Source: Escherichia coli (GTDB lineage Bacteria > Pseudomonadota > Gammaproteobacteria > Enterobacterales > Enterobacteriaceae). From it: a stretch of 64,000 nt of DNA. A model generated the notes under the pieces. It saw only the letters and a list, made by a program, of their open reading frames with translations. It was not told the DNA's origin and did not search any database. Location: assembly GCF_003334305.1 (NCBI RefSeq), contig NZ_QOWS01000001.1; one strand, written 5' to 3'. Below, piece by piece: positions 54,895-55,047 of the stretch. How positions within the stretch are numbered: position 1 is the first letter of the stretch; the number at the start of each line of letters is the position of its first letter. The position numbers and the translations under genes are program-made.

Positions 54895-54934
54895 GCAATA
54901 AAAAAGCCCCCGGAAGGTGATCTTCCGGGGGCTT
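54895..54934 (-). terminator. his operon attenuator (leader terminator hairpin)
   Basis: On the - strand, GC-rich hairpin AGCCCCCGGAAG/CTTCCGGGGGCT followed by a U-run, between hisL and hisG. Confidence 0.85.
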
Positions 54935-54996
54935 TCTCATGCGTTCATGCACCACTGGAAGATCTGAATGTCTTCCAGCACACATCGCCTGAAAGA

Positions 54997-55047
54997 CTAG
55001 TCAGGATGATGGTGATGATGGTGGTGTTTAAATTGAACGCGTGTCAT
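54997..55047 (-). CDS. hisL: his operon leader peptide (7 consecutive His codons)
   Basis: Minus-strand reading ATGACACGCGTTCAATTTAAACACCACCATCATCACCATCATCCTGACTAG = MTRVQFKHHHHHHHPD*; too short for the ORF track. Confidence 0.92.
   Translation of the reverse strand: MTRVQFKHHHHHHHPD

Follow-up and report, generated by a model that had tools for sequence, protein, structure and literature searches.

Directly upstream of hisG, this Escherichia coli genome carries what looks like the leader of the his operon. The question that it raises is whether this is a complete, canonical attenuator placed ahead of a complete operon or an element whose surroundings have changed too far for that description. 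The window, by which we mean the whole 64,000-nt stretch of contig NZ_QOWS01000001.1 that was analyzed, had previously been read without database searches. That sequence-only reading placed an intact his attenuator at 54895-55047 and took the his operon to be intact and conventionally regulated despite a rearrangement at its 3' end.

Attenuation of the his operon has been textbook material since 1978-1981, and the element described here is almost certainly the canonical E. coli attenuator by which ribosomes control transcription of hisLGDCBHAFI. We show directly that every sequence element is present and identical to K-12, that the alternative folds are predicted, and that the operon is intact. 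From what is already established for this system, polymerase pausing, a kinetic contest between the folds, and a response to histidine would be expected. Judged by its sequence, the his attenuator in this genome is an ordinary, already known element, and its annotation is correct. The value of the finding is that of annotation quality control: it identifies the window as E. coli chromosome from the his-O-antigen region, with a complete his operon and a canonical seven-His leader. It touches no open questions; the element is base-identical to that of K-12.

Anatomy of the his leader

The leader peptide gene hisL occupies 55047..54997 on the minus strand, with its ATG at 55047-55045 and its TAG at 54999-54997. 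Its 16 codons and stop (ATG ACA CGC GTT CAA TTT AAA CAC CAC CAT CAT CAC CAT CAT CCT GAC TAG) encode MTRVQFKHHHHHHHPD, and both nucleotides and protein are those of K-12 b2018. The peptide with seven His residues described by the sequence-only reading can be read there codon by codon. The seven consecutive His codons (CAC CAC CAT CAT CAC CAT CAT), which would act as the sensor for charged tRNA-His, lie at 55006..55026 on the same strand. As in other attenuators of the his type, the leader has a short ORF with tandem codons for the amino acid that is the end product of the pathway.

Seven CAY codons in a row are found at one place in the 64-kb window and in none of 100 shuffles. The Rfam model RF00514 (His_leader) aligns at 54898..55021 on the minus strand over its full length (positions 1-126 of 126), scoring 131.6 bits against a gathering score of 49 (E = 1.4e-21), with no non-canonical pairs flagged. 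The predicted folding energy of the 171-nt leader is -68.4 kcal/mol, compared with -41.1 ± 3.5 kcal/mol for shuffles (z = -7.9). Given the rarity of the seven-CAY run, the Rfam score, and the z-score of the fold, the his leader is no chance match.

Six pairing segments, A to F, can be placed along the minus strand. Helix A:B (54979..55014; A, 55014-55001; B, 54997-54979) was located from the Rfam consensus structure, minimum-energy folds, and an alignment of 59 leaders. Segments C (54978-54970) and D (54963-54950), which together span 54950..54978, were located from masked folds and the same alignment. Segment C pairs with D in the terminating state and with B in the read-through state, in which D then pairs with E. 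The attenuator terminator E:F (54897..54935) consists of a 14-bp stem and a 5-nt loop, AUCAC, followed by UUUAUU. Its stem arms are 54935-54922 for E (inside segment E, 54935-54920) and 54916-54903 for F. From 54935 to 54903 it reads AAAGCCCCCGGAAG-AUCAC-CUUCCGGGGGCUUU, and UUUAUU extends up to 54897; the U-run within 54935-54897 reads UUUUUUAUU. This is the GC-rich hairpin with a U-run that had been reported on the minus strand, and the limits then given for the element are off by no more than 2 nt, on the 3' side. The terminator is separated from the hisG start codon (ATG 54851) by 46 nt, so that, again as in his-type attenuators, the leader ORF is followed by an intrinsic terminator before the structural genes begin. 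In the published description (PMC10989985), the leader RNA is 180 nt long, its 16-residue peptide has seven His codons in a row, and a 14-bp stem with a 5-nt loop is followed by a U-run; stem, loop, U-run, peptide length, and His count in the window all agree with this.

The likely his promoter, hisLp, is found at 55086..55115 on the minus strand, with a -35 hexamer TTGCTT (55115-55110), an 18-nt spacer, and a -10 hexamer TAGGTT (55091-55086); it is 100% identical to that of K-12. Transcription probably starts at about 55078 ± 2, some 7-8 nt past TAGGTT, because the leader RNA ending in the U-run is 180 nt long (a length taken from PMC10989985, citing Frunzio 1981). A consensus scanner with a 4-of-6 rule called no sigma-70 consensus promoter across 54700-55400. 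It missed hisLp because TTGCTT and TAGGTT agree with the consensus at no more than 3 of 6 positions each. The same simple scanner did not call the attenuator terminator either; A-U and G-U pairs lengthen its stem to 19 bp in the predicted fold, and in our reading this longer stem takes up the U-run. We considered whether these misses count as evidence against the leader and rejected the idea, as they reflect limits of the scanner and are uninformative.

Comparison with the K-12 his leader had been suggested as a check. Over the 291 nt between 55139 and 54849, the window does not differ by a single base from E. coli K-12 MG1655 (NC_000913.3; 100% identity). This stretch begins 24 nt upstream of the -35 hexamer of the likely promoter and takes in the hisG ATG. 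The window shares with MG1655 hisL (b2018; RF00514) the same peptide, six pairing segments, terminator with a 14-bp stem and 5-nt loop, and spacing to hisG. There is no difference inside the element, and the window has four substitutions farther upstream, from 55140 to 55263. The hisL annotation is present in records 100% identical to the window sequence, and RefSeq labels this sequence "hisL: his operon leader peptide" and "His leader region" in such records. Among 5,426 complete E. coli genomes, a 224-nt stretch of promoter plus leader is present in 5,424, with at least 99% identity in 5,199. One of the four upstream substitutions falls in a hairpin at 55199-55179 (arms 55199-55191 and 55187-55179), which is a perfect 9 bp in K-12 and has one T-T mismatch in the window.

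Alternative folds and their conservation

To follow the pairings as the leader RNA grows, we folded nascent transcripts of increasing length with ViennaRNA, masking the ribosome footprint (30-nt mask). Without a ribosome, A:B and C:D are predicted to form, joined by E:F when the transcript includes F. If the ribosome has His codon 3 or 5 in its A site, B:C appears once C has been made, and the minimum-free-energy fold of a transcript ending at E combines B:C with D:E (-29.4 to -29.5 kcal/mol), leaving E sequestered. A ribosome with the stop codon in its A site covers B; C:D is then formed and E is free, and E:F follows when F is added. For a ribosome on the seventh His codon with a +15-nt mask, C:D is already favored. 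In the complete leader at equilibrium, the terminator E:F always wins, even with a ribosome mask. Full-length equilibrium folds are thus unable to show antitermination, and folds of transcripts ending before F were used instead. The dominance of the terminator in the full-length folds implies that read-through depends on co-transcriptional kinetics. As expected of a his-type attenuator, predicted folds and conservation together point to mutually exclusive pairings, with the antiterminator favored when a ribosome sits on the regulatory codons. The alternative pairing segments, which the sequence-only reading had singled out for a check by structure prediction, are intact in the masked folds and in the 59 leaders.

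The his pause hairpin corresponds to the top of A:B and reads CCUGA-CUAGUCUU-UCAGG (55005-54988, minus strand), with a 5-bp stem and an 8-nt loop. The predicted his pause site (54976..54977, minus strand) has its RNA 3' end at U54977 and G54976 as the next nucleotide; G54986 is at -10, and the base of the hairpin lies 11 nt upstream. U54977 would correspond to the his pause position. The G at -10, U at -1, and G at +1 of the window leader fit the features reported for the hisL pause, which is hairpin dependent and follows a G-10/Y-1/G+1 consensus (PMC9291695). The sequence features of the hairpin-stabilized pause that, in his-type attenuators, keeps ribosome and polymerase in step are thus present here.

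In the mechanism that these elements would support, transcription would begin at the his promoter, about 30 nt upstream of hisL, and polymerase would pause past the A:B hairpin (3' end U54977) until a ribosome starts on hisL. If charged tRNA-His is plentiful, the ribosome would pass the seven His codons, reach the stop codon, and cover B. With B covered, C:D would pair and E would stay free, and E:F together with the U-run would end the transcript after about 180 nt, before hisG. If charged tRNA-His is scarce, the ribosome would stall on the His codons and cover A only. With the ribosome on A, B:C would form, followed by D:E before F is made, so that no terminator would arise and polymerase would read through into hisG-hisI. 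Without translation, A:B, C:D, and E:F would form and transcription would terminate. A rise in read-through under limiting charged tRNA-His is established for the identical K-12 sequence (PMC10989985, PMC9291695). The description of the operon as conventionally regulated therefore holds in that the leader is identical to an experimentally studied allele; the regulation itself would be expected from this identity.

Leaders of relatives were gathered by scanning representative bacterial genomes for HHHHHHHPD-stop, a pattern that preselects leaders. The 76 matching loci all come from Enterobacteriaceae genera or unclassified proteobacterial MAGs. The alignment built from them comprises 59 distinct full-length leaders and the window sequence (a duplicate of one of them), and Yersinia, Vibrio, and Pasteurellaceae are absent from it. 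Across the 59 leaders, segments A-F are essentially invariant; the positions that vary lie in the loops of the terminator and of C:D, in the spacer from D to E, and past the U-run. In the terminator conformation 99.9% of cells are paired, and in the antiterminator conformation 99.8%, compared with 38-59% when the partners are slid by 1-3 columns; helix A:B is paired in 100% of cells in these 59 Enterobacteriaceae leaders. No two-sided compensatory changes occur in the 59 leaders, and every shuffle control ties the observed values. This covariation signal is absent because the stems are almost invariant, so the alignment is to be read as conservation and not as proof by covariation. The only common stem polymorphism in A:B, C:D, B:C, and D:E is an A/G site in segment C, where 17 of the 59 leaders have G. 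Pairing is kept in both helices, with A-U becoming G-U in C:D and U-A becoming U-G in B:C, as would be expected of a site under double constraint.

Both the A-F model and the his pause come from work on the his leader of Salmonella enterica. This leader encodes the same peptide, MTRVQFKHHHHHHHPD, and segments A-F are almost identical in subsp. arizonae and diarizonae (loci L028 and L049). The Salmonella leaders differ from the window in their terminator loop (AUCAU versus AUCAC) and their unbroken U8 (versus U6AUU), in synonymous changes among the His codons, and in the A/G site of segment C. Within E. coli, the leader RNA of O157:H7 is that of the window bar one base, with the same promoter. 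Its hisL (L080:2644-2694) encodes MTRVQFKQHHHHHHPD, in which the first His codon has changed from CAC to CAG (Gln), leaving six consecutive His codons; unlike this six-His form, the window carries the canonical seven. In E. coli E69 (L030), an O9a:K30 strain, hisL encodes MVRVQFKHHHHHHHPD, and hisL of Trabulsiella odontotermitis (L060) has ten His codons.

Among other amino acid operons, the trp leader is usually drawn with four segments versus six in his, and the his operon is not known to have a repressor protein equivalent to TrpR. The trpL, pheL, leuL, and thrL leaders differ from his in their regulatory codons and have fewer alternative helices. Their logic is the same: a short leader ORF rich in cognate codons, a pause hairpin, mutually exclusive antiterminator and terminator helices, and an intrinsic terminator ahead of the first structural gene (PMC10989985).

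The his operon and its 3' junction

The attenuator lies directly upstream of an intact his operon, as his-type attenuators do. All eight genes of hisGDCBHAFI are open, lie on the same (minus) strand, and are 95.1-100% identical to K-12 in protein sequence: hisG (54851-53952), hisD (53946-52642), hisC (52645-51575), hisB (51575-50508), hisH (50508-49918), hisA (49918-49181), hisF (49199-48423), and hisI (48429-47821). In co-linear translation against K-12, hisG, D, C, B, H, A, and F are full length with no internal stops and 98-100% protein identity, and hisI is open with 202 aa, which upholds the claim that the operon is intact. Leader and operon are probably co-transcribed, because the sequence is identical to that of K-12.

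The 3' end of the operon is where the window departs from K-12. Homology of hisI to K-12 stops at 47860, and the last 12 codons are replaced, giving a protein of 202 aa versus 203 aa in K-12. K-12 HisI ends in ...DLTTVIENLRKRHQ, and the window HisI is divergent in its last 12 residues. The same tail is found, identical, in E. coli IAI1, and the 17 other hisI genes among the fetched loci are without it; these 17 are from E. coli K-12, E. coli 2014C-3097, and other Enterobacteriaceae, a set that does not contain Klebsiella. Klebsiella, to which the O8/O9 literature points, may be the donor of the divergent tail. By the break in homology, 47821-47860 marks the recombination junction of the O-antigen cluster. 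The K-12 operon terminator is also replaced at this O8-type junction. The genes wbdC and hisI converge, and the 38 nt that separate their stop codons (47783-47820) contain a GC hairpin, CCCCCGC-7 nt-GCGGGGG (47812-47792), which stands in place of the K-12 his terminator and has no U-run on either strand.

Beyond hisI the window has an O8-type O-antigen cluster, versus wzzB at this place in K-12. This ABC-transporter-dependent polymannan cluster lies on the plus strand at about 35700-47782, between wzzB and hisI as in IAI1. It comprises manC, manB/rfbK, wzm, and wzt, together with genes for a SAM methyltransferase (40527-41804), a 1213-aa glycosyltransferase (41807-45448), and a family-4 glycosyltransferase (45500-46657) and with wbdC (46667-47782), all on the plus strand. 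This is exactly the cluster of IAI1, which is 98.8% identical to the window over 31.5 kb. The wbdC-hisI junction is present in at least 649 of 5,426 complete E. coli genomes, IAI1 included. The rearrangement noted at the 3' end is real, in that the junction lies inside hisI with tail and terminator replaced, but it is not unusual. From its distribution, the arrangement is a common, serogroup-specific one in which the 3' end of the operon is changed, not disrupted. Because the hairpin at this junction has no U-run, his transcription that the attenuator has released might conceivably continue into the O-antigen genes in antisense orientation and so tie O-antigen expression to histidine starvation, a scenario to which we give very little credence.

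Competing readings and neighboring loci

One published proposal would add to the classical model without replacing it: DnaA might bind the leader RNA, which its authors themselves call only a "possible" riboswitch (PMC10989985). We consider such an extra layer conceivable, though rather doubtful. Any DnaA boxes would also be present in the window, the leader being identical to that of K-12, but the proposed boxes each have two mismatches to the consensus, and an earlier Salmonella study cited in the same paper put the DnaA effect down to hisR dosage (PMC10989985).

Changes on either side of the leader invite the view that it is intact in sequence but a decoupled relic, its regulation altered by the O-antigen cluster on the 3' side and by polymorphisms near yefM-yoeB. 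The last 12 hisI codons and the K-12 operon terminator have indeed been replaced, and upstream of 55139 there are four substitutions relative to K-12, one of them in the hairpin at 55199-55179. However, an attenuator works at the 5' end of its operon, whatever the 3' junction, and there the identity to K-12 is unbroken from 24 nt upstream of the -35 hexamer through the hisG ATG. All eight his genes are open, and the occurrence of the arrangement in at least 649 complete genomes, including IAI1, argues for a stable functional configuration. A decoupled leader is, on this evidence, extremely improbable. It is scarcely credible, for its part, that the hairpin and U-run do no more than terminate a separate small gene or sRNA, without any switching, and that hisG is expressed from its own promoter: the 46-nt gap to the hisG ATG has no promoter-like site called in it, the exclusive B:C and D:E alternatives are 99.8% conserved across genera, and deletions of hisL-SL raise his operon transcription (PMC10989985). 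The great stability of the hairpin, which dominates every equilibrium fold, and the lack of a called sigma-70 consensus promoter in 54700-55400 would suit a plain terminator, yet in K-12 that reading has already been refuted by published deletion and fusion data. We reject both the decoupled leader and the plain terminator because of the full identity to K-12, the promoter-less 46-nt gap, the conserved alternative helices, and the published deletion data, and we retain the canonical attenuator.

Upstream of the leader, yefM (55330-55581) and yoeB (55578-55832) lie on the plus strand. This toxin-antitoxin pair is an insertion/deletion polymorphism: O157:H7 is without it and has yeeZ directly next to hisL. 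The homology of O157:H7 to the window ends inside the hairpin at 55199-55179, ~65 nt upstream of the his -35 hexamer. At 55297-55314, 16 nt upstream of the yefM ATG, there is a repeat (TGTACA-6 nt-TGTACA), a candidate for the YefM-YoeB autoregulatory operator. Three further Rfam matches in the window, all on the plus strand, score above their gathering scores: algC RNA at 13754-13803 (77.3 bits); a JUMPstart element, typical of the 5' end of polysaccharide gene clusters, at 24737-24775 (56.7 bits); and the sRNA STnc240 at 57760-57834 (68.2 bits), between yeeY and yoeI/plaP.
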